A DNA stretch of 64,000 bases from Gammaproteobacteria bacterium (GCA_032250735.1 JAVVEP010000008.1:1775-65774); one strand, 5' to 3'; shown: positions 5,001 through 37,471, numbered from the stretch's first letter. Numbers and translations: made by a program. Notes: generated by a model from the sequence alone, not told the origin.

Positions 5001-5076
5001 TGTGGACGCTCAGCGGACTAACTGAAATCTACCGCTGAGTGTGGTGCATCACGCGCTAATGCGTGATGCGGGCCGG

Positions 5077-5289: not shown

Positions 5290-5913
5290 AACGCTCTCCT
5301 TTGCAATATCCGAATATTGATTAAGTATGTGTTTCACGTTCATGACCGAGTATCCGTGGCCTGTGAAACACGGCTCCTGATTGCCGATTTTATTGCTGAT
5401 TGATTGGTCGGCAATCGCGCGCACGAGACCACGCGCTTCCGGAGACTAGGATATTTATGTCCAATGGTCAACATTTGATGGTCAAAATCCACGATAAAGC
5501 GGTCGGCCTAATACCGGTATTTTTTCGATGCTTATAACCCGGCAATAGCCCGGCAATCACTCAGGGGCGATGATGTTGCGAGCGAGACGTGGGTACAACA
5601 GTGTGATTATTAAAGTATTTTAGTCCTGCACCGGCTTTCGTCAGCGCTATCTCGTTGTACCGGCCAGTTGTGCCTACCAATTGTGCCGGCCAAATTCACC
5701 CATTCTCATCTCCGACTGTTATTCTGGCCTGTGTGAAATTACATTATGATTTTTCTAGCTCTGGCCGGACTTTCCGGCTTTGTGCAGAACCGAGGGGGAA
5801 TTTGCTGGCTTGCCGGACCTGCTTCGCATACCATTTTTATGGTTATAGGGGTGCGCACAATGGCGAGTTAGGAAGGCATATCCCATCGAATCCACACGCA
5901 AAGGTCTTCACTC

Positions 5914-6711
5914 ATGTCAATTGGAATAGAAACGGCCGGACGCCCGGCGCCACTCATTCTTCCCACCACCGAACCCGTGGCGGATTTTCATCCCGAGCCC
6001 GACGATTTCTGCTTCTGTAACAGCGGCAAGCGATTCGGTGGTTGTTGCGGATCCACCGACCTGGTGCGCCCGCCGCCTTATGGGCTGTTCATGTTCGAAA
6101 ATTTTCTCGATCCCAAGCAGGCCCGGGAGTTGACCGACTATGCCGAGCAGTGCGAGGGCGAGCGCCTGATGGTGATCGATAATATACAGTCCACCCCCGA
6201 CAACATCGTCAAGGTGGAAGACCCGCGGCGTATTACCGAACGGGTCAAGTTGGGTGCCAGACGCAAGGAAATCCAGGCGATGATGGGGCGGGCTTTTATC
6301 GATCTGGCGCAACGGTGTGTCGGCGCCAAACTGGATTGGTACGAGCTGCCCGATTTGATGCGGTACCGGCAAGGGGGATTTTATGTCCGGCACGCCGACA
6401 GCCAGAACAAGGATGAGGCGACCAACACGTGGCGCAAGGTGATCGATCGTGATCTCAGCATGCTCATCTACTTAAACGATGGCTATGAAGGCGGCGAGCT
6501 GAGCTTTTACAAATTCAATTATCAGATCCGGCCGCGGGCCGGTGCGGCGGTCCTGTTCCCCTCGGACCATCGCTATTTGCACCAGGCCGAAACCCTTAAA
6601 AGCGGTGTCCGCTATGCCCTGGTTAGCTGGGCCTCCGTGCAAGGGGTGCCGAAGATTGCGTCGCAGCCGCCCCAATGCGCCGTGCCTGTGGAATATAAGC
6701 CGGGTCAATAG
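5914..6711 (+). CDS. SEC-C motif / 2OG-Fe(II) oxygenase (PKHD/prolyl-4-hydroxylase-like)
   Basis: N-terminal CFCNSGKRFGGCCGS is a SEC-C zinc motif. C-terminal HADSQ...GGELSF...VLFPSDHRYLHQAETLKSGVRYALVSW matches the HxD...H...R facial triad/2OG-binding pattern of the P4H/PKHD hydroxylase fold. Confidence 0.8.
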   Translation: MSIGIETAGRPAPLILPTTEPVADFHPEPDDFCFCNSGKRFGGCCGSTDLVRPPPYGLFMFENFLDPKQARELTDYAEQCEGERLMVIDNIQSTPDNIVKVEDPRRITERVKLGARRKEIQAMMGRAFIDLAQRCVGAKLDWYELPDLMRYRQGGFYVRHADSQNKDEATNTWRKVIDRDLSMLIYLNDGYEGGELSFYKFNYQIRPRAGAAVLFPSDHRYLHQAETLKSGVRYALVSWASVQGVPKIASQPPQCAVPVEYKPGQ

Positions 6712-7889
6712 CCCAGCAAATCGCCGGGCAGTCCGTCCTCGGGGTAATCTGCTGCCAAAAGTTTTCGCGCCAATTCCTCCGCCGCCGCCAGCTCCGCCTG
6801 ATGTGCGGACAATAGTGCTGTTATTTCTCCGTCCCGTTGTTGCGGGCTGTAGGTGAATTTACTGTTCTTGGAATAGACGCCGAGCAGCGGCGCCATGGCC
6901 TGCTCAAGCGTTGTCCCCTCGATCGGCATCAAACCGAACCAGTCTGCGCATCGTGCAACGGCGGTGTAGGGATTGGCGAGCATGTGATTGAACTCGAGAC
7001 TGCGTACGCGGGCCGGCATGCTGCGGTAGGCCTTGTGGAACAGTGCGATGTTGTACGACCAATACAATGCCGCCAGTTCCCCATAGGCGTCCTCGGCCAC
7101 CGTGAAGTCCGGGCCGAGCCCCAGCAGTTGATTGATGGGCTGGCGCAACGCGGCGTAGCGCTGCGCGATCCACTGCTTGCGGTTATTCGCCTTGAGGCAG
7201 CCGGCGAGAAATTCTTGCAGCGGGGTGTGCATAAACAGCAGAGGGGCGTCCGCATGCCGCTCGATCATGGCCAGCATGAGGGGGTTGGCATAATCGTTGG
7301 CCTTGACCACCGCCATCTGCTGCGCATCAAAACGGCGTGACAACAATGCCATGACGCGCCGGTACCAGGCATCTTTATCCTGGGGGGAATTGGCCGGATT
7401 GCGCAGATATGCCAGCAGGTTGCCCAGCAGTTCCGGCTCGCGGATCGGCAGCGTGTGATACGCCGCGTCGAGGGCCTGGGACATGAGTGTTGAACCGCAA
7501 AAGGCGGTGTGAAAGATGAAGGCGGTTTGTTGACCGGCGATTTTGTCACAGGCCGACCGTAGCCATGCCAGGTCAGTTTGGATAATGCAGCTACCTTTGA
7601 TGCGTCCCGGGTCCATAAACACGCTGTCCCGATACGTCTGCGGCGACATCATGATGAAGTAGCTCTGGTATTCGGCAAAATTTACCCGCGCCGGAAACAG
7701 GGCGGGGCTGGCATCGATGTGCTCCAGCGCCTCCTGCAATTGCGCAGTCAGCGGCTCGTCTGCGACAACACCTTCGGTGGTTATAGCGGCCACGATGTGG
7801 GGCTGCGAGCGCTCGGCCTTGCCGCAACAGGCTCCGTAGACCAGGCCGCTGCCGCACGGGCAAGGCATCTCACTCGATTCGATATCCAT
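6705..7889 (-). CDS. SEC-C motif protein with ~370-aa C-terminal domain of unknown function (possibly P-loop/sulfotransferase-like; unverified)
   Basis: True start MDIESSEMPCPCGSGLVYGACCGK (ATG 7889, SD AAGGGAGA). The ORF-track N-terminal extension to 8144 is read-through. Converges on and overlaps the previous gene by 7 nt. HTAFCGST resembles a PAPS-binding loop, but only weakly. Confidence 0.6.
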   Translation of the reverse strand: MDIESSEMPCPCGSGLVYGACCGKAERSQPHIVAAITTEGVVADEPLTAQLQEALEHIDASPALFPARVNFAEYQSYFIMMSPQTYRDSVFMDPGRIKGSCIIQTDLAWLRSACDKIAGQQTAFIFHTAFCGSTLMSQALDAAYHTLPIREPELLGNLLAYLRNPANSPQDKDAWYRRVMALLSRRFDAQQMAVVKANDYANPLMLAMIERHADAPLLFMHTPLQEFLAGCLKANNRKQWIAQRYAALRQPINQLLGLGPDFTVAEDAYGELAALYWSYNIALFHKAYRSMPARVRSLEFNHMLANPYTAVARCADWFGLMPIEGTTLEQAMAPLLGVYSKNSKFTYSPQQRDGEITALLSAHQAELAAAEELARKLLAADYPEDGLPGDLLGY

Positions 7890-7921
7890 TGTTATTCTCC
7901 CTTCTCTATCCTGGCGAGCCG

Positions 7922-8340
7922 TCAATAGCCCAGGTTCGGCGCCAGCCAATACTCCGCGAACATGCGCGTCATGTCCTTGCGTTGCGCGTAGTCGTCGACC
8001 TGATCCTGGTTGATTTTGCCTACCGTGAAATAGGCGGCCTCGGGGTGCGAAAAATAGAAACCGCTGACGGCGGCGGTGGGCAACGAGGCCATGGCCTCGG
8101 CGAACCAGCTGCCGGTGCTTTCCTTCACCGCCATGAGATCCCACAGCAGGTTCTTTTCGGTGTGCTCGGGGCAGGCAGGATAACCGGGCGCGGGGCGAAT
8201 GCCCTGGTATTTCTCATAGATGAGATCGGTGTTGTCGAAGTACTCGTTCGGCGCGTAGCCCCAGATCTCCCTGCGCGCCTTCCGGTGCAAAAGTTCAGCG
8301 AAGCTCTCGGCGAAACCGCGAGGAAGTATAAACCCCCTGT
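7922..8340 (-). pseudogene. methionine synthase (metH) C-terminal fragment, ~139 codons, 5' truncated
   Basis: Translation ...HRKARREIWGYAPNEYFDNTDLIYEKYQGIRPAPGYPACPEHTEKNLLWDLMAVKE...VSGFYFSHPEAAYFTVGKINQDQVDDYAQRKDMTRMFAEYWLAPNLGY* is the conserved reactivation-domain C-terminus of B12-dependent MetH. Similarity stops abruptly near 8340, where lipoprotein-like sequence begins. Confidence 0.75.
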
Positions 8341-8365
8341 TCGCTCTAAAACCACCCCGGACCAC

Positions 8366-8440
8366 GCTGAAAAGGCCCGTGGCGTTAAGGGTGAATGGCG
8401 TAATGCCGACAAGGCCAAGTTTGAGGGCGAAATAGGCTAC
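8366..8440 (+). pseudogene. remnant of the lipoprotein gene (internal and 3' deletions) abutting xseA
   Basis: EKARGVKGEWRNADKAKFEGEIGYA corresponds to lipoprotein residues at 1778-1935, with the ~100 nt between two gccgacaag repeats deleted. Confidence 0.7.
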
Positions 8441-8455
8441 GCATCGCGATACACT

Positions 8456-9829
8456 ATGCGCATGCCGCAGACACCAGCCCCTGAATCGACCCTTGCACCC
8501 GAGCGCGAGATCTACAGCGTTTCGATGCTGAACAATGCCGCGCGCGACCTGTTGGAGCGGGAATTTCCGCTGATCTGGGTGGAGGGTGAGATCTCCAACC
8601 TCGCCCGCCCCGCCTCCGGCCACCTCTATTTCAGCCTCAAGGATGCCGACGCCCAGCTGCGCTGCGCCATGTTCAAGCTGCGCAACCGGCTGGTGGGTTT
8701 CCGCCCCGACAATGGTCAGCAGGTACTGGTGCGCGGACGGCTCAGCCTCTATCCGGCGCGGGGTGACTACCAGCTCATTGTCGAACACATGGAAGAGGCC
8801 GGCGACGGCGCCCTGCGCCGCCAGTTCGAGCTACTCAAACAACGCCTGGGTCACGAAGGCCTGTTCGATGCCGGGAGCAAACAACCCCTACCGGCCCTGC
8901 CCCGCCGACTGGGGGTGATCACCTCACCCAGCGGGGCGGCCATCCGCGACATCCTCAGCGTGCTCAGGCGGCGCTTTCCAAGCATCCCGGTGCTGATTTA
9001 CCCCGTGCCGGTGCAAGGGGTGGAGGCGCCACCCGCCATCGTCGAGGCGCTGCGGACGGCGAATACCCGCCGGGAATGCGATCTGCTGATCCTGGCCCGC
9101 GGCGGTGGCTCACTGGAAGACCTGTGGGCCTTCAACGACGAGGCGGTGGCCCGCGCCATCCACGCCAGCACCCTTCCGGTGGTCTGCGGCGTGGGCCATG
9201 AGGTCGACGTCACCATCGCCGATTTTGTGGCCGATGTGCGTGCGCCCACGCCCTCGGCGGCGGCCGAGCTGGTCAGCCCGGATCGCAACGAGTGGCTGGA
9301 CAGTTTTGCGGCCTGGCAGCAGCGCCTGACACGCAGTTGGCAGACCCAGCTGGCCCGGCGTCAGCAACACCTGGACTGGCTACGCCGGCAACTGAAACAC
9401 CCGGGACAGCGACTGCGTGAACGGGCCCAACGGCTGGATGAGCTGGAGCAGCGTCTCAGGCTGGCGCGGCTGGGCCGACTGCGCCAGCTGCAGGCCCGGC
9501 TGAACACCCTGCGCGCGCGGCTGTATGGCCACTCGCCGGTGCAGCCGCTGCGCGCGACCCGCCTGCGACTGGACAGCCTGCAGCACCGCAGTCAGCGCGC
9601 CATTCGCGCCAGACTGACCCAACAGCGCGCCCGGCTTGGCAATCTCAGCCGGGCGCTGGATGCGGTCAGCCCGCTGGCCACCCTCGGCCGCGGCTACGCC
9701 ATCGTGCAGAAACCCGACGGCAAGGTCGTGCGCCGCGTCGACGAGGTGTGCGTGGGGGAGCGCATCAACACCCGGCTCGGTAGCGGCCGTCTCGACTGTC
9801 GTGTCGAGGCCGTGCACGGGGAGGATTGA
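8456..9829 (+). CDS. xseA: exodeoxyribonuclease VII large subunit
   Basis: MRMPQTPAPE...IWVEGEISNLARPASGHLYFSLKDADAQLRCAMF (OB fold)...GVITSPSGAAIRD...ARGGGSLEDLWAFNDE, then coiled-coil Arg/Gln-rich tail. ORF-track start at 7889 is upstream read-through. Confidence 0.9.
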   Translation: MRMPQTPAPESTLAPEREIYSVSMLNNAARDLLEREFPLIWVEGEISNLARPASGHLYFSLKDADAQLRCAMFKLRNRLVGFRPDNGQQVLVRGRLSLYPARGDYQLIVEHMEEAGDGALRRQFELLKQRLGHEGLFDAGSKQPLPALPRRLGVITSPSGAAIRDILSVLRRRFPSIPVLIYPVPVQGVEAPPAIVEALRTANTRRECDLLILARGGGSLEDLWAFNDEAVARAIHASTLPVVCGVGHEVDVTIADFVADVRAPTPSAAAELVSPDRNEWLDSFAAWQQRLTRSWQTQLARRQQHLDWLRRQLKHPGQRLRERAQRLDELEQRLRLARLGRLRQLQARLNTLRARLYGHSPVQPLRATRLRLDSLQHRSQRAIRARLTQQRARLGNLSRALDAVSPLATLGRGYAIVQKPDGKVVRRVDEVCVGERINTRLGSGRLDCRVEAVHGED

Positions 9830-24759: not shown

Positions 24760-26670
24760 TCAAGTGGGCGACCCCACAGAGAGAGACTCGCCAGCGTGGC
24801 CATGGTTCAGTCGATAGATCACGAATTCGCGCTGCAACTGCACCAGTTCGGCGATTTCGGTGGCCTGCCGGTTTTCACCCGATTCGACCTGAATCGCGGT
24901 CCCCGGCGACAGTCGATGACTGTGGTGCAAAATCAGCTGCGAGGTCTTGCCATCGGCATGTCCGGCATCGGCTCGCTTTTCCACGCGACTGTGCAGCAGG
25001 ATCGCCGGCAGGGCCATATCGTTTTTGCTGAGAAAGTCGCTCTGCACCGCGGTAGCCTCCGCTTGGTGGGAGAGGATACGAATCGTGACCTCGATCTCCT
25101 TATTGAGCTTGCGATGCAGACGCACCACATAACCCAGTGTCGGCTTTTTCAGTGCCTCGCGCGAAAACCCAAAAGCCACCAGCTGACCGATGAACAGCGC
25201 GGTAGTGAACTGGGATTCCCGCGTCTTCATATGCACGCCGCCGGCACTCTTGTCCATCACAAACCACTGACCGAATTCACTCGCCTCAAGGTCCGACGCA
25301 ATCAGGGCTGAACGGCCGGCCAGGGCATCACGCAGATCATGTCCCTCTACTGGCACATCAGTGGCTTCAATCTCCTGCGCGGCCATATCCACCAGCAACT
25401 TGTAGACCGACATGAAACCGTTATACACATACAGTATTTTCTGACCGATGGTGTATTCGCGCGGTTGTTTGCGCTGCTTCAACTGCATGCCGTCACACAT
25501 GGCATCGATCGTCAGCAGGTTGGTTAAATCATCCTGATCCGTGACCTTGCCGCTGGCTTTTTCATCGTCCTCAACGACGGTGGACGCCTCCAGACGTTTC
25601 AACAGCTTCTGGTGTTCCGCCAGCAACACTGCATCCAGCGGCGAGACATCGACAATAATCGCCCGCAGGTCCCCGGTCGTTAAGGCGGCTGCCGCTGCCT
25701 CTCCCCCATGCTCCGCCAGCCCTTTCTGTTGCAGCGCAAGATAACGGGCATCCTGACGTTTAAAATAGGCGGGACAGTCCTGGCCGAAATAGATGAGTAT
25801 TTTACCGCGGGCCAGTTGCTTTCCATGATCGGGAATAATCGTAATCGAGTCGACCACGCGGGCGATCTGCGCGTCCACTACATGCAGTTTTTGCGAGGAG
25901 ATCGTATTGCTGTCCAGCAGGCCGTTAATCTGGATCGAGAGATAGACAATGTTCATCGACACCATGGTCGGCACGCGTCGCTCCAGCGCATTGGCCTTTC
26001 TATCCAGCGTCAGCTGCAGGCAATCCAGGGCCTGGTACTGGGCGTCCATGTCTTCGCACTGCGACACGGCGAAAAATATCCGGTTACAGTCCCGCCATGC
26101 CCTGGCCGGCAGCTTCTGATAGCGCATGGCGCGCAGGCGCTGTTCCATGCGGATCAATTCCAGCACCCGCAGGGCCTGTTGCCGGACCCGCTCCCGCACG
26201 CGGACATAACGCGCGTCGGACAGGGCAAAATCCAGATTCAACTGACGCTTGTAGGCCATCCCCAATTGGCCACACACATTAATCGCCGCCACCAGGCCTT
26301 CACGCCGGTCGTGCGGTTCCGGCAGGGCCTCGGTTTTATAATATTCCGAATAGATTTTGCGGATCGCCGGGCAGGCATACTGCATCACAGACTCCACCCA
26401 TTGCCGACGTTTGCTGTCGGCGACACGTTCGTTATTGATACGCTGCAAATAACGGTCAATTTCGCGCAGCAACTCGATGGGGTGGTCATTCAACTCACGC
26501 CAGCTGTCCGGCGGAGCGTCCAGTTTATCCGTCTGCGAAAGCAGGCGTCGGCGACTGGCGCGCAACACAGGTACCTCTAACTTTAATTCGATCGTACGAG
26601 GCGCAACGGTTTCCCCCTTGCTTTCCGCAAGCGACAGCCAGCTGCGCCATTGGGACCAGTCATACGTCAT
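24760..26670 (-). CDS. large hypothetical protein, paralog of 19663..21534, C-terminal PilZ-like DKSAGG motif
   Basis: 636 aa. ...RDALAGRSALIASDLEASEFGQWFVMDKSAGGVHMK... aligns with the NESAGG region of the paralog. Starts 10 nt downstream of the parC stop. Confidence 0.6.
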   Translation of the reverse strand: MTYDWSQWRSWLSLAESKGETVAPRTIELKLEVPVLRASRRRLLSQTDKLDAPPDSWRELNDHPIELLREIDRYLQRINNERVADSKRRQWVESVMQYACPAIRKIYSEYYKTEALPEPHDRREGLVAAINVCGQLGMAYKRQLNLDFALSDARYVRVRERVRQQALRVLELIRMEQRLRAMRYQKLPARAWRDCNRIFFAVSQCEDMDAQYQALDCLQLTLDRKANALERRVPTMVSMNIVYLSIQINGLLDSNTISSQKLHVVDAQIARVVDSITIIPDHGKQLARGKILIYFGQDCPAYFKRQDARYLALQQKGLAEHGGEAAAAALTTGDLRAIIVDVSPLDAVLLAEHQKLLKRLEASTVVEDDEKASGKVTDQDDLTNLLTIDAMCDGMQLKQRKQPREYTIGQKILYVYNGFMSVYKLLVDMAAQEIEATDVPVEGHDLRDALAGRSALIASDLEASEFGQWFVMDKSAGGVHMKTRESQFTTALFIGQLVAFGFSREALKKPTLGYVVRLHRKLNKEIEVTIRILSHQAEATAVQSDFLSKNDMALPAILLHSRVEKRADAGHADGKTSQLILHHSHRLSPGTAIQVESGENRQATEIAELVQLQREFVIYRLNHGHAGESLSVGSPT

Positions 26671-26680: not shown

Positions 26681-28972
26681 TCATTCACCGGTTGACGTTG
26701 CATCAGTCACCGCATTGGCCGCAAGGTTGGCCGACAAACCATCCACGCGCTGGAACCCCCGCGGCAGTTTCGCGCCGCGCCGGCCACGCTCCCCGGCATA
26801 ATGTTCAAGATCTTTCGGCTTGAGGGTCAGATGACGCTTGCCGGAATGAATCGTCAGACTGCCGCCGAGCGGCACCACGGCCATGCCCACCACAAACTCC
26901 TCGCGCGTCGCCACCTTGGCCGGCGGGATGCCGATAATCCTGTTGCCTTTACCCTTGGCCATCTCCGGCAGTTCCTGCAAGGGGATCATCAACATGCGCC
27001 CCTCGGTGGTCACCGCCACAATACGATCCGTCGCGACATCGGTCACCGCGCCGGCCGGCAAGACCCGCGCCCCCTTGGGCAGGTTCAGCAGCGCCTTGCC
27101 CGACTTGTTTTTCGCGTACATATTTTCCAGCTGGGTGACAAAGCCATAACCGGCATCGCTGGCCAGCAGATAACGGTCACTGCCCTTGCCGGCCAATACA
27201 TCGACAAAACCTGCCGCATCCGGTGGGGTGACGCGCCCTGTCAACGGTTCACCCTGGCCGCGCGCCGATGGCAGTGTGTGCGCGGCTATGGAATACGAAC
27301 GCCCGCTGGCATCGAGGAACACCACCAGCTGATTACTGCGCCCGCAGGCCGCGGCCCTGAAGTCGTCGCCGGACTTGTAGTTCAGCGCTCGGCCATCCAC
27401 ATCGTGGCCCTTGGCGGCACGTATCCAGCCCTTCTCCGACAGCACCACGGTGACCGGTTCCGCGCTGATCAAGGCGGTCTCGTCCAGCGCCTGCGCCGCC
27501 TCACGCGCAACGATGGGCGAACGCCGCTCGTCGCCGTACTCCTCTGCATCGGCGATCAGCTCCTTGCGCACCAGGGTTTTCAGTCGTGCACTGGAGCCCA
27601 GGGTCTTTTCCAGTTGGTCACGTTCCGCCGCCAGCTCTTCCTGCTCGGCGCGAATCTTCATCTCTTCCAGCCGCGCCAGCTGCCGCAACTTGGTATCGAG
27701 GATATATTCCGCCTGCTCCTCGCTGAGCTTGAAGCGCTTGATCAGCACCGGCTTAGGTTCGTCCTCGCTGCGGACGATACGGATCACCTCGTCCAGATTG
27801 AGGAAGGCGATTAGCAAGCCATCCAGCAGGTGGAGCCGACGAATGACCTTCTCCAGGCGGTATTCCAGACGACGACGCACCGTGTCGGTACGGAACACCA
27901 GCCATTCCTTCAGCAGCGTGCGCAGGTCCTTCACCTGCGGCCGACCGTCCAGGCCGATGACGTTCATGTTGACGCGATAGGTCCGTTCAAGATCCGTGGT
28001 GGCGAACAGATGCGCCATCAGCTCATCCAGATCGATGCGGTTGGAACGCGGCACGATCACCAGCCGGGTGGGATTTTCGTGATCGGACTCGTCACGCAGG
28101 TCTTCCACCATCGGCAGCTTCTTGGCGTTCATCTGCGCCGCAATCTGTTCCAGCACCCGGTTGCCCGACACCTGATGCGGCAGTGCCGTCACCACCACCG
28201 CGCCATCCTCCTTGATCCACACCGCCCGCATACGCACCGATCCGCCGCCCTTCTCGTACATGGCCTGCAACTCGCTGCGCGGAGTGATGATCTCCGCCTC
28301 GGTCGGATAATCCGGTCCCTGCACATGCTCACACAGTTCCGCCAGCGAGGCCTTGGGTTCATCCAGTAGATGCACGCAGGCGCTCACCACCTCGCGCAGA
28401 TTGTGCGGCGGGATATCCGTCGCCATACCCACAGCGATGCCAGTAGTCCCGTTCAACAACAGATTCGGCACCCGCGCCGGCAACATCGCCGGCTCTTCCA
28501 GGGTAGCGTCAAAATTCGGCACCCAGTCCACCGTACCCTGCCCCACTTCACTGAGCAGCAGATCCGCATAGCGGGCCAGACGTGACTCCGTGTAACGCAT
28601 CGCCGCGAAAGACTTGGGATCATCCTGCGCACCCCAGTTACCCTGACCGTCCACCAGCGGGTAACGGTAGGAGAACGGCTGCGCCATCAACACCATCGCC
28701 TCGTAACAGGCCGAGTCGCCGTGCGGGTGGAACTTGCCCAGCACGTCACCCACGGTACGCGCGGATTTTTTATACTTCGCCCCCGCCTTCAGACCCAGCT
28801 CGGACATGGCATAAATGATGCGCCGCTGCACCGGCTTCAGGCCGTCGCCGATGTGCGGCAGGGCGCGATCCAGGATCACGTACATGGAGTAGTTGAGGTA
28901 GGCGTTCTCAGTGAAGATGCTGAGGGGTTGTTGTTCGACGCCTTCGTAGTTTAGTTCTGTTGTTTCTGTCAT
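26681..28972 (-). CDS. parC: DNA topoisomerase IV subunit A
   Basis: 763 aa. [12 protein letters not shown]...HPHGDSA...MRYTE active-site Tyr region. Length fits ParC rather than GyrA. Confidence 0.9.
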
Positions 28973-29061
28973 TGTTTGATCTTTCGTTGGAAGCGGCAGG
29001 CAAATTCATTCTGCCCCGATAATTTTTTGATTTTCTTTCGATTCATTTAAAAAACAAACAA

Positions 29062-29448
29062 TCAAATTTTTCTGATGCTTTCTCTCACCCAGGGATGCAA
29101 GTGTTCTAAATCACAGGTATTAGAATCAAACAAACCCATCAAGAATCGGTGGGCGGCCTTTGCTTCAAGCTGAAATTTATATCCATTCATGCGGAGAAAT
29201 ACATCCGTCGCAAAAAAAGCGACTCGTTTGTTTCCATCAACAAAGGGATGATTCTTAATGAGAGACTCAAACATGGCCGCCGCCATTTCAACCAGGTCTT
29301 CATAGTAACCCGTTTGTGGTCGGTACAACGCGCTTTCAAGCAAGCCAAAATCACGCACCCCTGGCGGGCCGCCGAATCTTTCAATCAACACCACATGGAT
29401 TTCAACCACCTCATCCACGGATAAAAACTGAACAGACTTACTTGGCAA
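29062..29448 (-). CDS. Doc/Fic-family toxin
   Basis: HPFVDGNKR Fic motif. AT-rich cassette. Confidence 0.8.
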   Translation of the reverse strand: MPSKSVQFLSVDEVVEIHVVLIERFGGPPGVRDFGLLESALYRPQTGYYEDLVEMAAAMFESLIKNHPFVDGNKRVAFFATDVFLRMNGYKFQLEAKAAHRFLMGLFDSNTCDLEHLHPWVRESIRKI

Positions 29449-29650
29449 GAAGTTTACCTAATTCTTCATTTTCACGAATAGAATTATTGAGATGTGATTT
29501 AACAACCGGACGAACACGGCGACGACGAAGGTATTCGCTAATCGCCTCTGTCAGAAGACCCGAGACATTCTGATGGGATTCCCTGGCAACCGCCTTTAGC
29601 TCATCCCATACGGCCTCTTCGACTTTTGAACTGATTTTAATAGAAGGCAT
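29438..29650 (-). CDS. cognate antitoxin (Phd/RHH-like), overlaps toxin start
   Basis: 70 aa, overlaps doc by 11 nt. Basic C-terminus LRRRRVRPVV. Confidence 0.6.
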   Translation of the reverse strand: MPSIKISSKVEEAVWDELKAVARESHQNVSGLLTEAISEYLRRRRVRPVVKSHLNNSIRENEELGKLLAK

Positions 29651-29775
29651 CACGCAATCCTAGATACAGAGTATTGACATGTCAAGATATCAGAAATAAT
29701 CACTTTATAAACAGTCTGTTACACAAAACCAATAAAGGAAGCCTTGGGAGATGTAAGAGCTTCGATTTCTTTAGT

Positions 29776-29862
29776 TGAGCCAGGCGTTCTCCGTGAAGAT
29801 GCTGAGGACTTGTTGTTCGACGCCTTCGTAGTTTAGCTCTGTTGTTTCCGTCATTGCTCTGC
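29776..29862. repeat. ~87-bp duplicate of the parC 5' end (start codon plus first ~25 codons and RBS)
   Basis: gccaggcgttctccgtgaagatgctgaggacttgttgttcgacgccttcgtagtttagctctgttgtttccgtcat versus 28886-28972 at ~92% identity. Flanks the TA cassette as a direct repeat. Confidence 0.85.
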
Positions 29863-29865
29863 TTT

Positions 29866-29951
29866 TTGTAGGGTGGGCATTGCCCACCATTGCACAACAC
29901 CAATCATTACCTTATTGGTGGGCTATGCCCACCCTACAAAAACAGGTGCTT
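29866..29951. repeat. REP palindromes (inverted pair) upstream flank of RAYT
   Basis: gtagggtgggcattgcccacc ... ggtgggctatgcccaccctac. Confidence 0.7.
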
Positions 29952-30497
29952 TTACTCGCCAAATCCTTCATTCGGCGCATTGAACTCGCCACCCCAATTC
30001 TCGCTGTAAATGCCTTCTTTAACATACTGATGAAACGTGGAATGTGGCCATGCATTTACCTGCTCCACCAATCCATGTTTTACGGGGTTGAAATGGATGT
30101 AATCCGCGCGGCGTTGAAAATCTACCTCATCCCTGATGAGGTGCTCCCAAAACCGACGTTGCCAAATGGTGCTTTCTCTGTGCCGTTGCTTTGATGTATT
30201 CATCTCAGCATCACAATGAAAAAGCGGCTTTGCCTGTTTCGTAAATCCCGCCTTTATCATTCCCCATCGTTTTGAATAATTCGCATCACCTTCTGGCAAC
30301 GTCCACATGCAATGTAAATGGTCCGGTAACAAAACCCAGGCATCAACACTAAACGGATGTTGTTGCCTTACTTCATCAATCACCCGTCGCAATATCTGCC
30401 GGCTTTCTGGCTTGTCCAATATTGATTGACGCCGATGGGTTACTACGGTGAAAAAATACGTTGCACCTTTTACTATTGATCGACGGTAGTTTGGCAT
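29952..30497 (-). mobile_element. REP-associated tyrosine transposase (RAYT, IS200/IS605 Y1 HUH family)
   Basis: VLLPDHLHCMW HuH motif plus downstream catalytic Tyr region. Flanked on both sides by REP palindromes. Confidence 0.85.
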
Positions 30498-30504
30498 AAG
30501 CGCT

Positions 30505-30635
30505 TTTATTACAATTTCTGGTGGGCAGTGCCCACCCTACTAACTAACTGGTGGTCATTGCCCACCATTGCACAAAACCCAACGATGCCGGATTGGTGGG
30601 CGGTGCCTTTATGCCCTGTGGGTACACCCTACTCA
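30505..30635. repeat. REP palindromes (three copies) downstream flank of RAYT
   Basis: ggtgggcagtgcccaccctac, ggtggtcattgcccaccattgcacaa, ggtgggcggtgcc... Confidence 0.7.
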
Positions 30636-30676
30636 AATCAGCCGCCAGTGTACCAAACCTCACCCACCCTGGCTTA

Positions 30677-33600
30677 TTACTCATGGTTTACCAAAACCGT
30701 CGCATCCCGAAAATGCATCATCCGATAAATGGCCGGCACCAGCACCAGACTCACCAGCATCGAGAAACTCAGACCCCACACAATCACCACCGCCAGCGGT
30801 TGCAGCATCTCCGAGCCTTCGCCGAAACCGATGGCCAGCGGCAGCATGCCCACCACCGTGGTGAGCGAGGTCATGAGGATGGGCCGCAATCGTAACCGTG
30901 CGCCCTCGACGATGGCCTCGATGAAAGCCAGGCCCCGCTCGCGTTCCACCTCCACCTGCTCCACCAGCACGATGGCGTTGTTGACCACGATGCCGGCGAG
31001 CATGATCAGCCCCAGCCAGATGGGCATGGAGATGGGGATGGCCAGCCAGGAGATGCCGGCGGCGACGCCGATCACGGTGAAGGGAATGCTGAGCAGGATC
31101 ACCAGCGGGTTGCGCAGGGATTCGTACTGCACCGCCATCACCACGAACACCAGGAATATCGCCAGGCCCAGCAGCACATAGCCCATGCTGCGCCCCTCTT
31201 TCAGGGTCTTGGCCTCGCCGCCGTCGTAGAGGCTGTAGCCCTCGGGGATGGCCAGATCCGCGAGCTGCTGATGCACCTTGCTCATGGCCTGCTCCGGGCC
31301 GAAGTCAGGCGACAGCGAGGCGGTGACCTCGACGATGCGACGCTGGTTGTCGCGCAGGATGCTGGCGGGGGCGGCAGTAAAGCTCACCGTCGCCACGCTG
31401 CGCAGGCGCACCGGCTGGCCCTGATGCAGGCCGACCAGGATGTTGCCCAGGTCATCGGGCGAGGTGAAGGCGGTGCGCGGCAGGCGCAGGCGCACGTCGT
31501 ACTGGCGGTCACCGTCGATGAAGTCGGAGACCACGATACCGTCCAGCGCGGCGCGCAGGGCGCGGCCGATGTCGTCGACGCGGATACCCAGATCGGCGGC
31601 GCGCTGACGATCCACGCTCACCGCCACCTCGTTACGCGTCTCTTCATAGCTGTGACGCAGGTTGCTGAGGCCCTCGACATTGCGCAGCCGACTGGTGATC
31701 TCCTCACCCAGTTCGCGCAGCACCTCGGTGTCCGGCCCCTGCACGCGGATGCTCAGGTCGTCGTCGCCGGAGCTGATGCGCACGCCGCGGATGCCGCGCA
31801 CCCGCATGCGGATGTTGGTGCCGGTCAGGCCCAACTGCTTCACCGCCTTTTGCATGTCTTTCACCCAGTCCTCGCTGCCGCGACTACGCTGGGTGGCGGG
31901 CACCAGCTGTACCTTGATGTCACCCGAATTGCTGGACTGGTATTCCGAACGCCCGAACACCCGGCCGCCGGAGGTGGTGAACACGGTGAGCACGTCCGGC
32001 TGTTGCAGGAACAGGTCCTCCAGCCGGGTAATGACGTCATCGGTCTCGTCCAGACGCATGCCCGCCTCGCCGGCGATGCTCACCGAGATCTCGCCCTCGT
32101 CCATCGGCGGCATAAAGATCTGTTTGCCGCCAAAGAACACCGGCACCGCCAGCGCCAGCGCCGGCAACAGCACCAGCAGCGGCAGCCAGGGGAAGCGCAG
32201 CAGGAGGCGGGTCAGCCGGACATAGCCGCGTTGCAGGATGGTCAGCAGCCCGTCCATGGCGCGTTGCACCGGGTTGGCGCCCGAGTCGTGCACCCGTGCG
32301 CCCCAGGCCGGGACCAGGGTCAGGGCCACCACCAGGGAGGCGACGATGGCGGCGGAGATGGTGATGATCAGCTCGCTGAACAGCAGGCCCACCAGCCCGC
32401 CGATAAACAGGAAGGGCAGCACCGCCGCCAGGTTGGTCGAGGTGGAGGCGGCGATGGCGCTGTTGACCTCGCGCGCGGCGTTCACCGGCGCCTCCAGATC
32501 ACCCTCCCCCTGGCGCTGGTGACGGGCGATGTTCTCCAGCATGACGATGGTGTTGTCCACCAGCAGGCCGACGCCCAGCGCCAGGCCGCCGAGGGTCATG
32601 ATATTCAGCGTGAGGCCGCCCAGATCCATGATCACAAAGGTCACCAGGATCGCCAGCGGAATGGCGGTGCCGATGATCAGGGTGCGGCGAATACTGCCCA
32701 GAAACAGGAACACCACCAGCATCGCCAGGGCCGCGCCGGACAGCGCCGCCATGGAGGCGTTGCGCAGGGCGTGGCGCACATAGGTGGACTGGTCGCCGAC
32801 CCGGTCCACGTGCACATCATCGGGGACCAGGCCCTGCGCGCGCAGCCATTGCAGGCGCTCCATCACCACATCCACCACCGCCACGGTGTTGGCCGCCGGC
32901 TGCTTCTGAATAGAGAGCTTGATGCCCGGCACGCCGTCGAGGCGGATGCGCAGCTTTTCGTCTTCGTGGATATCCAGCACCTGGGCCACATCGCCGAGGC
33001 GGATCATGGTATCGGCGCTGGCGCTCTCCCCCTTCCACAGCGGCATGGCCGCCAGCTCCCCGGCGTTCTGAAAGCGTCCGGTGGCGCGGGCGCTGATCTC
33101 GCGATTGGCGGTGTGCAGGCGGCCGCCGGGGCTGTCCTGATTTTCCTCGCCCAGGGCGGTGGCGACGTCCTCGATGGTAAAGCCCAGGGCGCTGAGGCGC
33201 TCCTGATCCACCACCACCTGAATCTCGCGGGCCAGGCCGCCACCCACCTCGGCAGCGGCCACCCCGGGCAGGTTGAGGAACCACTTGGCGAAGGTGTAAT
33301 CCACCCAGGTGCGCAGCTCCACCGGGCCGCGGTCCGGCGAGCTCACCACCATCTCCAGCACCGGGATCTGCGAGGGATCGCGCTTGAAGATTGTCGGCGG
33401 GTCGATGGTGTCGGGCAGGAATCGCTTGGCGCGATCCAGCCGGGTGCTGGCGTCACGCAGGGCAATGTCGATATCCGAACCGTAGGGAAAGCTCAGGTCC
33501 ACCGAACTGCGGCCCTCGGTGGTATTGGACTGCACCTGCACGGCGCCCTCGGTGATCGCCAGCTGCTCTTCCAGCTGGCGGGTGATGCGGTCTTCCATGA

Positions 33601-33802
33601 TGCGCGCCGGCACCCCCGGGTCGACGATGCGCACCCGCACCTCGGGATAGATGATGTCCGGCAGCAGGTTGATGCCCAGCCGCTCCAGCGAGCCCAGTCC
33701 CAGCACCACCACCGACAGGGCCAGCATGGTGACGCCGACCGGATGGCGGATGGACCACGCCGCCAGCCCGCCACTACGAAAGCGCTGCTGCATCGTGGCC
33801 AT
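30677..33802 (-). CDS. RND efflux transporter permease (AcrB/HAE-type)
   Basis: 1041 aa, 12-TM RND with large periplasmic loops. Start overlaps the MFP stop (TAATG). Confidence 0.9.
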   Translation of the reverse strand: MATMQQRFRSGGLAAWSIRHPVGVTMLALSVVVLGLGSLERLGINLLPDIIYPEVRVRIVDPGVPARIMEDRITRQLEEQLAITEGAVQVQSNTTEGRSSVDLSFPYGSDIDIALRDASTRLDRAKRFLPDTIDPPTIFKRDPSQIPVLEMVVSSPDRGPVELRTWVDYTFAKWFLNLPGVAAAEVGGGLAREIQVVVDQERLSALGFTIEDVATALGEENQDSPGGRLHTANREISARATGRFQNAGELAAMPLWKGESASADTMIRLGDVAQVLDIHEDEKLRIRLDGVPGIKLSIQKQPAANTVAVVDVVMERLQWLRAQGLVPDDVHVDRVGDQSTYVRHALRNASMAALSGAALAMLVVFLFLGSIRRTLIIGTAIPLAILVTFVIMDLGGLTLNIMTLGGLALGVGLLVDNTIVMLENIARHQRQGEGDLEAPVNAAREVNSAIAASTSTNLAAVLPFLFIGGLVGLLFSELIITISAAIVASLVVALTLVPAWGARVHDSGANPVQRAMDGLLTILQRGYVRLTRLLLRFPWLPLLVLLPALALAVPVFFGGKQIFMPPMDEGEISVSIAGEAGMRLDETDDVITRLEDLFLQQPDVLTVFTTSGGRVFGRSEYQSSNSGDIKVQLVPATQRSRGSEDWVKDMQKAVKQLGLTGTNIRMRVRGIRGVRISSGDDDLSIRVQGPDTEVLRELGEEITSRLRNVEGLSNLRHSYEETRNEVAVSVDRQRAADLGIRVDDIGRALRAALDGIVVSDFIDGDRQYDVRLRLPRTAFTSPDDLGNILVGLHQGQPVRLRSVATVSFTAAPASILRDNQRRIVEVTASLSPDFGPEQAMSKVHQQLADLAIPEGYSLYDGGEAKTLKEGRSMGYVLLGLAIFLVFVVMAVQYESLRNPLVILLSIPFTVIGVAAGISWLAIPISMPIWLGLIMLAGIVVNNAIVLVEQVEVERERGLAFIEAIVEGARLRLRPILMTSLTTVVGMLPLAIGFGEGSEMLQPLAVVIVWGLSFSMLVSLVLVPAIYRMMHFRDATVLVNHE

Positions 33803-34914
33803 TACTTGCTGTTAGCCTCGGCGGCGGCCTTGTCGTCGGTCGTCGCCGCATTCACCACCCGCACCGGGCTGTCGGCCCGCAGGCCGAGAAAGCCCTTGCT
33901 CACCACCCGGTCGCCGTCGGCCAGGCCCTCGAGGATCTCCACCTGCTCGCCGAATTGCAGGCCGCTGCGTACGCCAACGCGCCGGGTCCTGGTCTGCTCA
34001 TCCAGGCGATACACATGGGCGCCCTGGGCGTCATATTGCAGGGCATTGAGGGGGATGGTGCGGCGGGGCATTTCCGGCGTCGCCAGGCTGACACGGCACA
34101 GCTGACCGGGCCGGGCGCCGGCTGGCACCGGTTGCAGGCGCACCTCCACCGTACCCTGGCGGGTGGCGGGATCGATCATGGGATGCACCCGCAGCACCTC
34201 GCCGGCAAAGTCCCGATCACCCAGGCTGTCGATACGCACCTGCACCGCATCGCCCACCACCACCTGGCTGAGCAACTGCTCCGGCACCCGCACCGTGGCG
34301 GTGATCAGGCCCGGATCAAACAGGGTCAGGATGTGCTCATTCAGTGGCACCACGTCGCCGAGTTCCTTGAGGCGGGCGCTGATCAGCCCGGCAAAGGGCG
34401 CCTGGATCACGGTACGCGACAGCTGGGTGCGTTGCAGGCTCTCGGCGGCACGGGCCAGCTCCAGCGCGGTGTGGGCGCGGGCCAGTTCATCCTCGCTGGC
34501 GAGCTTTTTGGGCACCAGGTTTTGCAACCGCTGCAGGTCCACCTCCGCCTGCTTGCGCGTCGCTACCGCCATATCCAGCTCGGCGCGGATCAGGGCATCG
34601 TCCAGCCGCACCAGGGCCGCCCCCGCCGCCACCCGGTCACCCTCGTAAAAGGGCAGCTCCATGATGCGCCCGGCCCGTTCACTGTGGACATGCACCGTGC
34701 GCGGCGCCTCCAGGGTACCTGTGAGGGTGCGCGTGATGCGCATGGGTCGCTGCGAAACGGTAATGACCTCCACCGCGTGGGCGGGGCGACTCTTGTCCTT
34801 TTTGTCCGCCGTTTGGGCATCATCAGGCCCCTGGCTGCACGCGTTGAGCCACAGGACGCAGCAGACAATAGTGGCAATGGCAGAGAGGGTTTTTCGAGTC
34901 AGTTTTGGACGCAT
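33802..34914 (-). CDS. RND membrane fusion protein (HlyD/AcrA family) lipoprotein
   Basis: Start MRPKLTRKTLSAIATIVCCVLWLNACSQ (lipobox), ATG 34914. Coiled-coil/beta-barrel MFP body. Confidence 0.85.
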   Translation of the reverse strand: MRPKLTRKTLSAIATIVCCVLWLNACSQGPDDAQTADKKDKSRPAHAVEVITVSQRPMRITRTLTGTLEAPRTVHVHSERAGRIMELPFYEGDRVAAGAALVRLDDALIRAELDMAVATRKQAEVDLQRLQNLVPKKLASEDELARAHTALELARAAESLQRTQLSRTVIQAPFAGLISARLKELGDVVPLNEHILTLFDPGLITATVRVPEQLLSQVVVGDAVQVRIDSLGDRDFAGEVLRVHPMIDPATRQGTVEVRLQPVPAGARPGQLCRVSLATPEMPRRTIPLNALQYDAQGAHVYRLDEQTRTRRVGVRSGLQFGEQVEILEGLADGDRVVSKGFLGLRADSPVRVVNAATTDDKAAAEANSK

Positions 34915-35581
34915 CTGGATGTGACACCTAACAATAGATAATGTTTCGCACTTTAGGGGTGGGGAGATGTTTTGTGCAAGGGGTATTCTGTGCCTCAGAC
35001 CGTAGGTTGGGGGGAGTGAAGTAAATCCCAACAATTATCAAAACGTCTGCGTGGTTCCGCAGCTAATCGTTCGGTTGTCTTATTTTTTCCTGGCGGAAGA
35101 TGACGGGAATTAACGGCGTCGTAGATTCCGAAGAAATAGTTTACTCCTTCTCCCCTTGAGGGGAGAAGGTTGGGATGCCAACAGTAGGCGCTTTAGGCGA
35201 GGGGTGGAACGCTCAGAAGTTGTTTCATGAACCCTCTCCCAGTTTTGGGAGAGGGGATAAACAACCTCAGATTTTGAATCTGTGGTTTTGACCTACCCTC
35301 ACGCCATCCCTCGCTTGCGATCCTCGGCATTTTGCGATGAAGCGAGCGGTGTTTGAGGAAGCGCAGCGACCGAGTTTAGCTCGCGCGCAGAATACCGAGG
35401 AGCGCAAGAGACCGCGCAACGCGCGGCGAGGGATCCGGGTGCTCTTTCTTTTGGTTACTTTACTTTGAGCACGCAAAGAAAAGTGACTCGCAGCCTTCCG
35501 CAGGAAATAAAGTAAACCACCGTGTCATCAAGGCTGGGAAACCGCGCACAAACTGCCCAATGCGCATTCCCAAAACCCAAC

Positions 35582-37471
35582 TCAAACCTCCGCCAAATCC
35601 CCCTTCGTCTCCAACCACGCCTTGCGATCCGCTGCCCGTTTCTTCGCCAGCAACATATCCATCATCTGATGCGAGGTATCACCCGCGGCAATCGTCAGCT
35701 GCACCAGGCGTCGCGAGTCCGGCGACAGGGTGGTCTCACGCAACTGCTTGGGATTCATTTCGCCCAAACCCTTGAAGCGTTGTACCGTGACCTTGCCACG
35801 CAGCTTTTCGGCGGCGATACGATCAAGTATGCCCTGCTTCTCGGCATCGTCTAACGCGTAATAGGCGTCTTTGCCGATGTCGATGCGATACAGCGGCGGC
35901 ATGGCGATGTACACGTTGCCTGCGGCGACCAGTGGTTTGAAATGGCGCAGGAACAAGGCACACAACAGGGTGGCGATGTGGGCGCCGTCGGAGTCGGCAT
36001 CGGCCAGCACGCAGATCTTGCCGTAGCGCAGCCCGTCGAGGTTGTCGGAGCCGGGATCGACACCGATGGCGACGGCGATGTCGTGCACCTCCTGCGAGGC
36101 CAGCACCTCGCTGGGGTCCACTTCCCAGGTGTTGAGGATCTTGCCGCGCAGCGGCATGATCGCCTGGTATTCCTTGTCGCGGGCCTGCTTGGCCGAACCT
36201 CCGGCGGAGTCACCCTCCACCAGGAACAGCTCGCCGCGGGCGGGATCGGAAGACGAACAGTCCGCCAGCTTGCCGGGCAGGGCCGGTCCCTGGGTAATCT
36301 TTTTGCGCACCACCTTTTTGCCGGCGCGCAGACGACTCTGGGCACTGGAGATGGCCAGTTCGGCCAGCGCCTCACCCACCTCGGTGTTCTGGTTGAGCCA
36401 CAGCGAAAACGCATCCTTCACCACCCCGGAGACAAACGGTGCGCACTCCCGCGAGGACAGGCGCTCCTTGGTCTGCCCGGAAAAGGCCGGGTCGGCCATC
36501 TTCACCGAGAGGATGTAACTGACCCGGTCCCACACGTCGTCCGGCGCCAGCTTGACGCCGCGCGGCAGCAGATTGCGAAACTCGCAGAACTCGCGCATGG
36601 CCTCGGTGAGGCCGGTGCGCAGACCGTTGACATGGGTGCCGCCCTGGGCGGTGGGCACCAGGTTGACGTAGCTCTCGGCCACCGACTCCCCGCCCTCGGG
36701 CAGCCACAGCACCGCCCATTCGGCGGCCTCTGCGTTGCCCGCAAATTTGCCCATGAAGGGCTCGGCCGGCAGGGTGGGCAGACCGTGCAACTCGTCCATC
36801 AGGTAATCGCGCAGGCCGTCTTCGTAGTACCAGTTGGTGGTCTCATCGCTGGCCTCATCGTAGAAGCTAACTTTCAGACCCGGGCACAACACGGCCTTGG
36901 CGCGCAGCACGTGCTTGAGCCGGGGCACGGAGAATTTCACCGAATCAAAGAATTGCGGATCGGGCCAGAAGCGCAGCGTGGTGCCGGTGTTGCGCTTGCC
37001 GACGCTGCCGACCTCTTCCAGATCGGAGATCTTGTTGCCGTCGGCGAAGGCGATGTTGTATTCCGTACCGTTACGTCGCACCCAGACCTCGAGATGCTTG
37101 GACAGGGCGTTGACCACGGAGATGCCCACGCCGTGCAGGCCGCCGGAGAATTCGTAGTTTTTGTTGGAGAACTTGCCGCCAGCATGCAGCTTGGTGAGGA
37201 TCACCTCCACCCCGGGAACGCCCTCCTGCGGGTGGATATCCACCGGCATGCCACGGCCGTCGTCACTGACTTGCAGGGAGCCGTCCTTGCTGAGGATCAC
37301 ATCAATGGTGGTGGCGTGACCGGCAATGGCCTCGTCGACGCTGTTGTCGATGACTTCCTGCGCCAGATGATTGGGGCGCTCGGTCTGGGTATACATGCCC
37401 GGGCGTTTGCGCACCGGCTCCAGGCCACTCAATACCTCGATGGAGGCGGCATCGTACAGATTACTCATCAC
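35582..37471 (-). CDS. parE: DNA topoisomerase IV subunit B
   Basis: 629 aa. GHKL ATPase EVIDNSVDEA, TOPRIM EGDSAGG. Lacks the GyrB insertion. Confidence 0.9.
   Translation of the reverse strand: MMSNLYDAASIEVLSGLEPVRKRPGMYTQTERPNHLAQEVIDNSVDEAIAGHATTIDVILSKDGSLQVSDDGRGMPVDIHPQEGVPGVEVILTKLHAGGKFSNKNYEFSGGLHGVGISVVNALSKHLEVWVRRNGTEYNIAFADGNKISDLEEVGSVGKRNTGTTLRFWPDPQFFDSVKFSVPRLKHVLRAKAVLCPGLKVSFYDEASDETTNWYYEDGLRDYLMDELHGLPTLPAEPFMGKFAGNAEAAEWAVLWLPEGGESVAESYVNLVPTAQGGTHVNGLRTGLTEAMREFCEFRNLLPRGVKLAPDDVWDRVSYILSVKMADPAFSGQTKERLSSRECAPFVSGVVKDAFSLWLNQNTEVGEALAELAISSAQSRLRAGKKVVRKKITQGPALPGKLADCSSSDPARGELFLVEGDSAGGSAKQARDKEYQAIMPLRGKILNTWEVDPSEVLASQEVHDIAVAIGVDPGSDNLDGLRYGKICVLADADSDGAHIATLLCALFLRHFKPLVAAGNVYIAMPPLYRIDIGKDAYYALDDAEKQGILDRIAAEKLRGKVTVQRFKGLGEMNPKQLRETTLSPDSRRLVQLTIAAGDTSHQMMDMLLAKKRAADRKAWLETKGDLAEV

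Follow-up and report, generated by a model that had tools for sequence, protein, structure and literature searches.

A Doc toxin–antitoxin cassette and an orphaned parC start form a recombination scar in the parE–parC interval of a gammaproteobacterium

We analyzed one strand of a 64,000-nucleotide (nt) stretch of DNA from a Gammaproteobacteria bacterium (GCA_032250735.1, JAVVEP010000008.1:1775-65774), referred to below as the window, whose coordinates are used throughout. Our subject is a small Doc toxin–antitoxin (TA) operon lying between parE and parC, which encode the two subunits of topoisomerase IV. The operon is bracketed by two copies of the parC 5′ end, one of which is the working start of the gene while the other is an orphaned start, hereafter the stub. 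Read along the minus strand, the order is parE, a dispersed repeat, genes for a membrane-fusion protein (MFP) and an RND efflux pump, a REP pair, a REP-associated tyrosine transposase (RAYT), a REPIN, the stub, the antitoxin gene, doc, a spacer (sp2), and parC. GC content is 0.37–0.49 over 28900–30600, versus about 0.6 or higher on either side. The features of the interval are as follows.

26681–28972, minus strand: parC (topoisomerase IV subunit A), functional, 763 amino acids (open reading frame, ORF; Pfam DNA_topoisoIV at 1.6e-136; relatives at 88–94% amino acid identity)
28890–28994, minus strand: repeat copy A, positions −22 to +83 of parC, the working start (pairwise and multi-lineage alignment)
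28973–29061, minus strand: spacer sp2, from the doc stop to the parC ATG, 89 nt, AT-rich, including the −22 box
29062–29448, minus strand: doc toxin gene, 128 amino acids, TTG start (PF02661, TIGR01550)
29438–29653, minus strand: antitoxin gene, predicted ribbon-helix-helix (RHH) protein, CopG-like, 70–71 amino acids (profile against structures)
29657–29685, minus strand: predicted TA promoter, TTGACA-17-TAGGAT (promoter scan, 10/12 match)
29654–29771, minus strand: spacer sp1, from the stub to the antitoxin ATG, its 5′ end being the putative illegitimate junction with parC +81/82
29771–29876, minus strand: repeat copy B, the orphaned parC start, with −22 box, ATG at 29854–29852, 27 open codons and TAA at the junction
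29862–29945, no strand assigned: REPIN (inverted REP pair) abutting the −22 box of the stub (hairpin of −54.1 kcal/mol, z = −7.7)
29952–30497, minus strand: RAYT (NF047646 at 1.1e-59; Pfam Y1_Tnp)
About 30550–30607: second REP pair (repeat family)
30677–35034, minus strand: RND efflux pump and MFP genes (ORFs; 80.6% nucleotide-identical to 1426–5658 of the metagenome locus L001)
35027–35581, no strand assigned: dispersed repeat element, ~550–600 nt, natively after parE
35582–37471, minus strand: parE (topoisomerase IV subunit B), left border of the variable slot (TIGR01055 parE_Gneg, 1017 bits)

A repeat search returned one two-copy family at the cassette, 28890–28974 and 29772–29856, with copies of 85 nt that are 92% identical (78/85) and spaced 882 nt apart. 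The copies match each other by blastn at E = 1e-26, and the 64-kb window contains no third copy. An earlier first-pass annotation of the window had described a direct repeat of the parC 5′ end, about 92% identical, on both sides of the cassette, which the pairwise alignment bears out, although the coordinates it gave for the upstream copy (29776–29862) were 4–6 nt too high. In pairwise alignment both copies span from a few bases 5′ of the ATG to codon 27. A multi-lineage alignment revealed a conserved box at about −22 to −1 before every parC start, including both copies in the window and the stubs of its relatives. The duplicated unit is therefore about 105 nt (28890–28994 and 29772–29876), with weaker similarity outside the 85-nt core that extends the repeat to about −22 to +83 of parC.

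We placed this arrangement in context using metagenome loci collected by protein searches (labelled L001–L179), which include relatives with ParC 88–94% identical to that of the window. The GTDB species collection offered 80 further ParC relatives, all at most 75% identical and too distant to inform, and none of these 80 had Doc, RHH, RAYT, RND or a stub near parC. Three of the metagenome lineages share the architecture in whole or in part. L005/L006 (Doc 98% identical) has the order stub, sp1, RHH gene, doc, sp2, parC, with a 68-amino-acid ORF upstream where the window has RAYT. L179 (Doc 91% identical) has the same stub–TA–parC order behind two other small ORFs, its stub being 87% identical to its functional start. 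L176 (Doc 91% identical) retains a stub remnant of ~30 nt fused to sp1, behind a ParE-toxin TA. The parC homology of the stub ends at +81/82 in the window, L005, L179 and L176, and the stub–TA architecture stands on single contigs of the independent assemblies ERZ25073485, ERZ25073487 and ERR12074392. Seven TA-less lineages (L087–L095, ParC 89–94% identical) have a single parC start and no stub. The first-pass annotation had tied the duplicate to the TA genes, and indeed no TA-less lineage carries it (0/7).

The sp1 junction sequence is common to the window and L005, and alignable but diverged in L179 and L176; in L001, the sequence corresponding to sp1 directly follows the RND gene. Spacer sp2 is shared by the window only with L005 and L006 (92%), with a longer related version in L179.

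Stubs are best described as decaying relics, because every one of them carries private substitutions found in no functional copy. The stub ORF remains open in three lineages, and its substitutions give no sign of purifying selection on the peptide, the changes being too few for a test: the window stub has three synonymous changes and one non-synonymous change plus Y25W, and those of the L005 stub are mostly non-synonymous. Uninterrupted identity between the two copies extends over at most 27 nt in the window, 52 nt in L005 and 26 nt in L179. For annotation, this means that a short 'parC-like' ORF upstream of a TA is a relic and should not be called as a gene.

The toxin assignment is secure. 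The translation of doc matches Pfam Fic PF02661 at 1.1e-16 (61.9 bits against a cutoff of 24), TIGR01550 at 3.3e-18 (66 bits against a cutoff of 38.65), and the P1 Doc structures 3k33 and 3dd7 at 1e-9, and it contains the catalytic motif HxFx(D/N)(A/G)NKR as HPFVDGNKR. Doc proteins of this family are EF-Tu kinases. A look-up of the exact window protein found no record, so its homologues, of which there are more than 7000, were used instead. Of the 15 differences in doc that separate the window from L005, its closest relative, 12 fall at third codon positions, and the gene is therefore under purifying selection.

The antitoxin gene lies upstream of doc and overlaps it by 11 nt; the first-pass annotation, which had named the pair Phd/Doc, had noted the overlap. 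The Doc half of that name stands and the Phd half does not: the antitoxin has no Pfam or NCBIfam match to Phd/YefM, and no PDB sequence matches it, Phd included. Its Pfam matches are weak (RHH_4 and CcdA), and a profile built from 18 homologues matches the CopG-family RHH structures 6iya and 7etr at E = 0.003–0.007. These profile matches identify it as a predicted ribbon-helix-helix, CopG-like antitoxin outside the Phd family, and this Doc is found with that RHH partner at about 48 loci. A 12-nt palindrome, TTGACATGTCAA, at 29674–29685 contains the −35 hexamer of the promoter and is a putative operator. It is invariant in five cassette copies, has one substitution each in L005 and L179, and also matches the more distant loci L109 and L113.

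Neither a plasmid nor a phage source for the cassette was upheld. Plasmid matches were confined to a 77-nt stretch surrounding the Doc motif, in Leptospira plasmids; the Doc proteins of phages are less than 35% identical, and no relatives of the cassette were found in the phage and plasmid collections searched.

The interval that received the cassette varies across lineages. The parE–parC gaps of the TA-less lineages L087–L095 all differ in content, holding a CSD/Excalibur gene, a 162-amino-acid ORF, a ParE-toxin TA with an 83-amino-acid ORF, RAYT with an LRR protein, or a 113-amino-acid ORF. Over all variants, the cassettes comprise ParE-toxin TA, Doc TA, RAYT, LRR, CSD/Excalibur, the RND pump and ORFs of unknown function, all of them on the parE/parC strand, and the variable DNA has a sharp right border at about −22 of parC. 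Since every gap differs and all contents are co-oriented, the parE–parC gap is a hypervariable slot, which probably lies inside the parE–parC transcription unit.

The ends of the two genes facing the slot are unusually conserved at synonymous sites. Across seven lineages, parC codons 1–28 (28889–28972) are 87% conserved at such sites, versus 57.6% for the rest of the gene; other 28-codon windows of parC have a mean of 57.3 and a standard deviation of 7.1 and reach at most 74.9%. At the 3′ end of parE, the final 14 codons (35582–35626) are 84% conserved, versus 56%. This conservation fits either frequent recombination in the slot flanks or constraints on translation or at the mRNA level, and does not decide between them.

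Sequence context indicates which of the two parC starts is the original. The window stub, together with the REPIN that precedes it, is collinear with the native REPIN–parC junction of the TA-less L094, and the stub is nearly identical to L094 from −34 to the ATG; L089 also has REP at this position. Copy A follows sp2, which adjoins the TA. In its −22 box it has the allele of L005, L088 and L092, unlike copy B, and over 98 nt it is 100% identical to the native start of the TA-less L087. Given that the stub sits in native REPIN context and copy A is contiguous with TA DNA, the stub is probably the resident original start, and the 882 bp from sp1 to +83 probably came in with the TA genes and brought the working copy A. 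This reverses the polarity in the first-pass annotation, which had taken the copy at parC as authentic and the upstream one as its duplicate. It also shifts the point of entry: the Doc TA does lie between the repeats, as had been claimed, but the incoming DNA would have entered inside parC, after codon 27/28, and not upstream of the gene.

A second scar involving the same TA occurs in a sister lineage. In L001–L004 (Doc 92% identical), the order is parE, MFP, RND, sp1, the RHH gene and doc, contiguous from RND onward, and there is no stub, and ~20 nt of this L001-type post-RND spacer persists right after the RND stop in the window. In L001 and L003, no more than 3 nt separate the doc stop from a decayed copy of the terminal ~96 nt of parE, which has a 36-nt internal deletion (L001 6388–6480 and L003 642–730, compared with L001 1299–1394). 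Beyond this copy lies the repeat element whose native place in the window, L088 and L094 is after parE. On this comparison, a block with a fresh parE 3′ end, MFP, RND and the TA appears to have joined in and orphaned the old parE end in the L001 lineage. The parE scar is the mirror image of the parC stub scar.

The structure is a recombination scar and not the footprint of a transposon. The ends of the insert show neither inverted terminal repeats nor short target-site duplications, and the parE–parC interval contains no recombinase, its domains and ORFs being only MFP, RND, RAYT, RHH and Doc. A tyrosine integrase at the insert end was absent from the window interval and from L005, L176 and L179; RAYT is a Y1 HUH enzyme. 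RAYT was also rejected as the agent of duplication, L005 and L179 having the stub without REP/RAYT. Three analogous scars differ in length, at ~105 nt for parC, ~96 nt for parE (L001) and at least 500 nt for xseA, the last belonging to an island elsewhere in the window. The first-pass annotation had suggested site-directed or homology-mediated insertion; the unequal repeat lengths and the lack of a recombinase in the interval lend the former no support and are consistent with the latter.

Our favored reading, to which we assign a probability of roughly 55%, is that one illegitimate joint and homologous recombination stacked two slot variants without an integrase. One parent would have carried RND–REPIN–RAYT–REPIN–parC and the other RND–spacer–RHH antitoxin–Doc–spacer–parC. 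In one illegitimate joint, parC +81/82 of the first variant would have met a point ~10 nt past the RND stop of the second, and the other side would have been resolved by ordinary homologous recombination within parC, which amounts to homology-facilitated illegitimate recombination. Both cassettes would thereby have been stacked rather than swapped, leaving the resident parC start (−22 to +81) as an orphaned 27-codon stub, and the incoming 882 bp would have brought the TA operon together with an intact replacement start. The essential parC gene would have survived because the incoming DNA supplied that start. Halves of the two parents are seen in existing lineages, namely RND–sp1–TA in L001 and REPIN–parC in L094.

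Once in place, the insert would be hard to lose for three reasons: the addiction module, the sole working parC start, and the decay of the stub. Doc and the RHH antitoxin would form an autorepressed addiction module, so that a cell losing the insert through recombination of the repeats would die or be arrested. An imprecise deletion would take away the sole functional start of parC. Decay of the stub to a longest perfect match of 27 nt would disfavor precise excision. The sequences directly show the repeat, what the genes are, the native surroundings of the stub, its absence from TA-less relatives and presence in three lineages with the TA, and the mirror-image scar at parE; we infer the recombination pathway, the addiction role and the co-transcription.

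Several observations weigh against this reading. Neither intact parent (RND–TA–sp2–parC without a stub, or RND–REPIN–RAYT–REPIN–parC) was found. The window/L005 type and the L179/L176 type share one parC junction nucleotide, +81/82. Between these types the first ~55 nt of sp1 are only ~50% alike; two independent events at one nucleotide would favor a site-specific or circle-based mechanism. The independent scars of L001 and L176 both start within ~3–10 nt of the doc stop, a precision beyond what random fragment ends would give. What precedes the stub is wholly different in the window, L005 and L179, so the model needs later cassette swaps that resolved inside the stub. Between the window and L005, third-position identity is ~90% for the TA and copy A, versus 74% for the parC body, and this similarity fits spread between lineages equally as well as descent from a single event. 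Finally, natural competence or RecA dependence is an assumption for this uncultured organism.

Some of these observations favor a rival, Campbell integration, in which a circle of 882 bp (sp1, the RHH gene, doc, sp2 and a ~105-nt parC 5′ segment) would enter by a single RecA crossover in the parC start. The circle could excise likewise, making the TA a recombinase-free mobile cassette that entered lineages independently. Such integration yields the observed architecture with identical junctions in every recipient, and it agrees with the unrelated regions upstream of the stub and with the greater similarity of the TA and copy A than of the parC body. The −22 boxes point the same way: that of each stub is a different native allele, and the copy A allele is the same in the window and L005. 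In L179, it is the stub that has the 'canonical' allele and the functional copy another, as expected if the crossover point varies. The synonymously conserved codons 1–28 of parC would also provide a good homology arm, but this conservation extends to TA-less lineages and may reflect a constraint on translation initiation. No circle was observed, RecA-dependent integration would have had 105 nt to act on, which is short, and ~35 other loci of this TA family, described below, lack flanking repeats. A single event with upstream cassette swaps explains the same data. We consider Campbell integration possible but unlikely.

A bolder proposal holds that orphaned gene ends are a functional part of a recombinase-free strategy and not passive scars. 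The cassette would travel with a spare parC 5′ or parE 3′ end and enter by host homologous recombination; capture of the sole working gene end would make imprecise deletion lethal, the stub would act as a decoy homology arm, and later cassette swaps would resolve in the stub and spare the TA. If true, this would define a new class of selfish element, with RecA as its 'integrase' and the synonymously ultra-conserved terminus of an essential gene as its 'att site', and it could couple parC expression to the autoregulated TA promoter. We regard this proposal as speculative and lend it rather little credence.

We find it less probable still that the scar descends from a decayed integrase island that targeted the parC 5′ end in the manner of dusA islands and left only the TA, or from a recombinase acting from elsewhere. 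Islands at dusA do replace the 5′ end of their target, leaving a remnant and imperfect direct repeats (PMC4482086), and the parC junction nucleotide is the same in two diverged junction types. One member of the TA family, L126, also stands alone between tRNA-Arg and a 50-nt copy of the tRNA 3′ half, a classic att signature. Against this, no integrase or remnant of one is present in the four stub-bearing lineages or anywhere in the slot, and the other slot variants (L087–L095) lack att-like duplicates. The analogous scars also differ in both sequence and length (96 nt of the parE 3′ end; at least 500 nt at xseA), and the cassette lacks relatives in the phage and plasmid collections. An intragenomic tandem duplication or slippage of the parC start unrelated to the TA, or an assembly artefact, is scarcely credible: direct repeats can come from slippage or unequal sister-chromatid exchange, but we rejected this origin because it would put sp2 upstream of the stub, where native REPIN context stands instead, and the two copies moreover bear different −22 box alleles, the stub is strictly linked to the TA across lineages, and the architecture recurs on single contigs of independent assemblies.

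The insertion also bears on how parC is transcribed. A consensus scan of the 89-nt sp2 found no promoter-like or terminator-like site, the RNA fold of sp2 is unremarkable (z = −0.44), and no attC-like structure follows doc. Searches for known RNA families over 28700–30700 gave only sub-threshold, spurious matches on the REPIN hairpin. With no terminator or structure between doc and parC and no consensus promoter in sp2, read-through is probable, and parC is probably transcribed from the upstream genes and from the autoregulated TA promoter.

Flanking repeats are not a general property of this TA family. About 35 metagenome loci with adequate flanks have none, and none of these loci is near parC, parE or RND. 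The exceptions are L126, with tRNA-end repeats, and L129, with hairpin-rich dispersed repeats. In L126 (Doc 65% identical), RHH and Doc lie alone between tRNA-Arg(ACG) at 2424–2500 (minus strand) and a sequence at 1359–1408 that is a 50-nt, 92% copy of the 3′ half of the tRNA; the arrangement is att-like with no integrase inside, and the TA may have outlived its island. In L176, the Doc TA is bracketed by a different direct repeat, 85 nt long and 87% identical (2736–2819 and 3666–3749), which starts in the last codons of the upstream ParE-toxin gene and includes a dispersed repeat of hairpin type. The right-hand copy begins ~5–10 nt after the doc stop, and the contig ends within it.

RAYT is flanked by REP pairs (~29862–29945 and 30550–30607) and so constitutes a REPIN/RAYT system, a neighbor of the TA insert. 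The first-pass annotation had correctly placed the start of the REP/RAYT sequences immediately after the upstream parC copy. A homologous REPIN lies directly upstream of native parC in L094 and L089. The RND and MFP genes are older cargo of the parE–parC slot, and their L001 counterpart has Pfam ACR_tran and RND-MFP domains on record. In L088 and L094, pieces of the dispersed element follow parE; others are found in L003, L005 and L179, and in L001 behind the orphaned parE end. Copies of the element, which take up several positions in the slot, lie at L001 6480–6713, L003 666–1400, L005 1–139, L088 2376–3122, L094 7641–8417 and L179 1–104; across loci the element measures ~550–700 nt and contains motifs such as CTTTTCTTTGCACGGCCAAAGAAAAGTAACC.

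Directly downstream of parC is a gene for a 636-amino-acid protein (24760–26670, minus strand) that had no Pfam or NCBIfam match in our scan. A precomputed FimW_N domain is on record for its homologues in relatives, and synteny is conserved. A paralogue with FimW_N and FimW_C and a GGDEF/EAL protein are encoded nearby.

The xseA scar belongs to an island of ~6 kb at about 2297–8369 (region 1645–9829), upstream of xseA. The first-pass annotation had seen the same repeat signature at this large island as at the cassette, and the resemblance holds: the island has no integrase, and its flanks are imperfect copies (89–96% identical) of local sequence, at least 500 nt long and including the xseA start. 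On the left are an intact lipoprotein gene and a truncated, internally deleted xseA start; on the right are lipoprotein-gene fragments and intact xseA (ATG at 8456). The island encodes a formyltransferase, an ABC exporter, a 2OG-Fe(II) oxygenase and two SEC-C-motif proteins. It also contains a 115-amino-acid ORF (5077–5424, minus strand) with no Pfam match, which ends in long GGGM and Ala/Pro-rich repeats (5083–5314, with 12-nt periodicity). As its neighbors are the ABC exporter and modifying enzymes, this ORF may encode the precursor of a modified peptide.

These findings can be placed among known systems, beginning with the operon itself. Like phd-doc of P1, it has the signature of the Fic/Doc fold, the HxFx(D/N)GNKR motif and a TIGR01550 match, along with a small upstream antitoxin gene that overlaps the toxin gene and the promoter palindrome expected for autoregulation. 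Like Doc TA systems in general, it is a small, low-GC, horizontally acquired gene pair. It differs from phd-doc in that its antitoxin is RHH/CopG-like and not Phd/YefM, and in that the cassette is chromosomal, between parE and parC, with no phage or plasmid relatives in the collections searched. The TA module is thus ordinary in itself, an addiction module of known kind with a non-Phd antitoxin.

The nearest integrase-borne parallel is offered by islands with dusA-specific integrases, which put their own sequence in place of the target gene's 5′ end; a remnant 5′ end stays behind, and imperfect direct repeats flank the island (Farrugia et al. 2015, PMC4482086). Here too the insert sits within a conserved gene, in its 5′ portion, supplies a new 5′ end with the remnant of the old one on its far side, and is flanked by imperfect direct repeats. 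Unlike those islands, it has no integrase, and its repeats are ~85–105 nt of ordinary gene sequence versus a semi-conserved att core of 21 bp. Its cargo is also below 0.8 kb, and neighboring slot variants have no att duplicates.

Closer in mechanism are homology-facilitated illegitimate recombination and Campbell (ends-in) integration. These pathways are known mainly from laboratory selections, and deletions at the illegitimate joint are typical. Both have been described for naturally transformable bacteria (see PMC3240628). Homology on one side and an illegitimate joint on the other would likewise account for the scar at parC. Homology-facilitated illegitimate recombination likewise involves no dedicated recombinase and allows arbitrary repeat length, and it would explain the parC, parE and xseA scars alike. 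The present case departs from laboratory examples in that the joint lies inside an essential gene, with a product viable only through the spare gene end of the donor, and in that this product persisted through the divergence of lineages.

Tandem accretion of integrative elements at one att site is well known, as is the stabilization of islands and superintegron cassettes by TA modules. Cassettes are similarly stacked here in one hotspot, separated by fragments of target sequence, and the addiction module would oppose loss through recombination of the flanking repeats, as in TA-stabilized islands. Unlike tandem accretion, the scars are fragments of the flanking core genes and not recombinase sites. 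Unlike integron cassettes, the insert has no attC-like structure after doc and no intI, and the only strong hairpins are the RAYT-associated REPINs. Our literature search returned nothing specific on TA insertion at parC or on gene-end decoys beside TA modules.

On these comparisons, the event is a variant of known processes rather than a new system, of modest interest to specialists in genome plasticity. Its value is as a natural, junction-level record of small cassettes stacking in an essential operon without a dedicated recombinase, with the same TA standing beside an orphaned parC start in some lineages and an orphaned parE end in others. If the pattern is general, fragments of core genes could mark cassette boundaries in hotspots that lack integrases. 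The locus further illustrates how foreign DNA can become fixed where it is once an addiction module is combined with a captured end of an essential gene.

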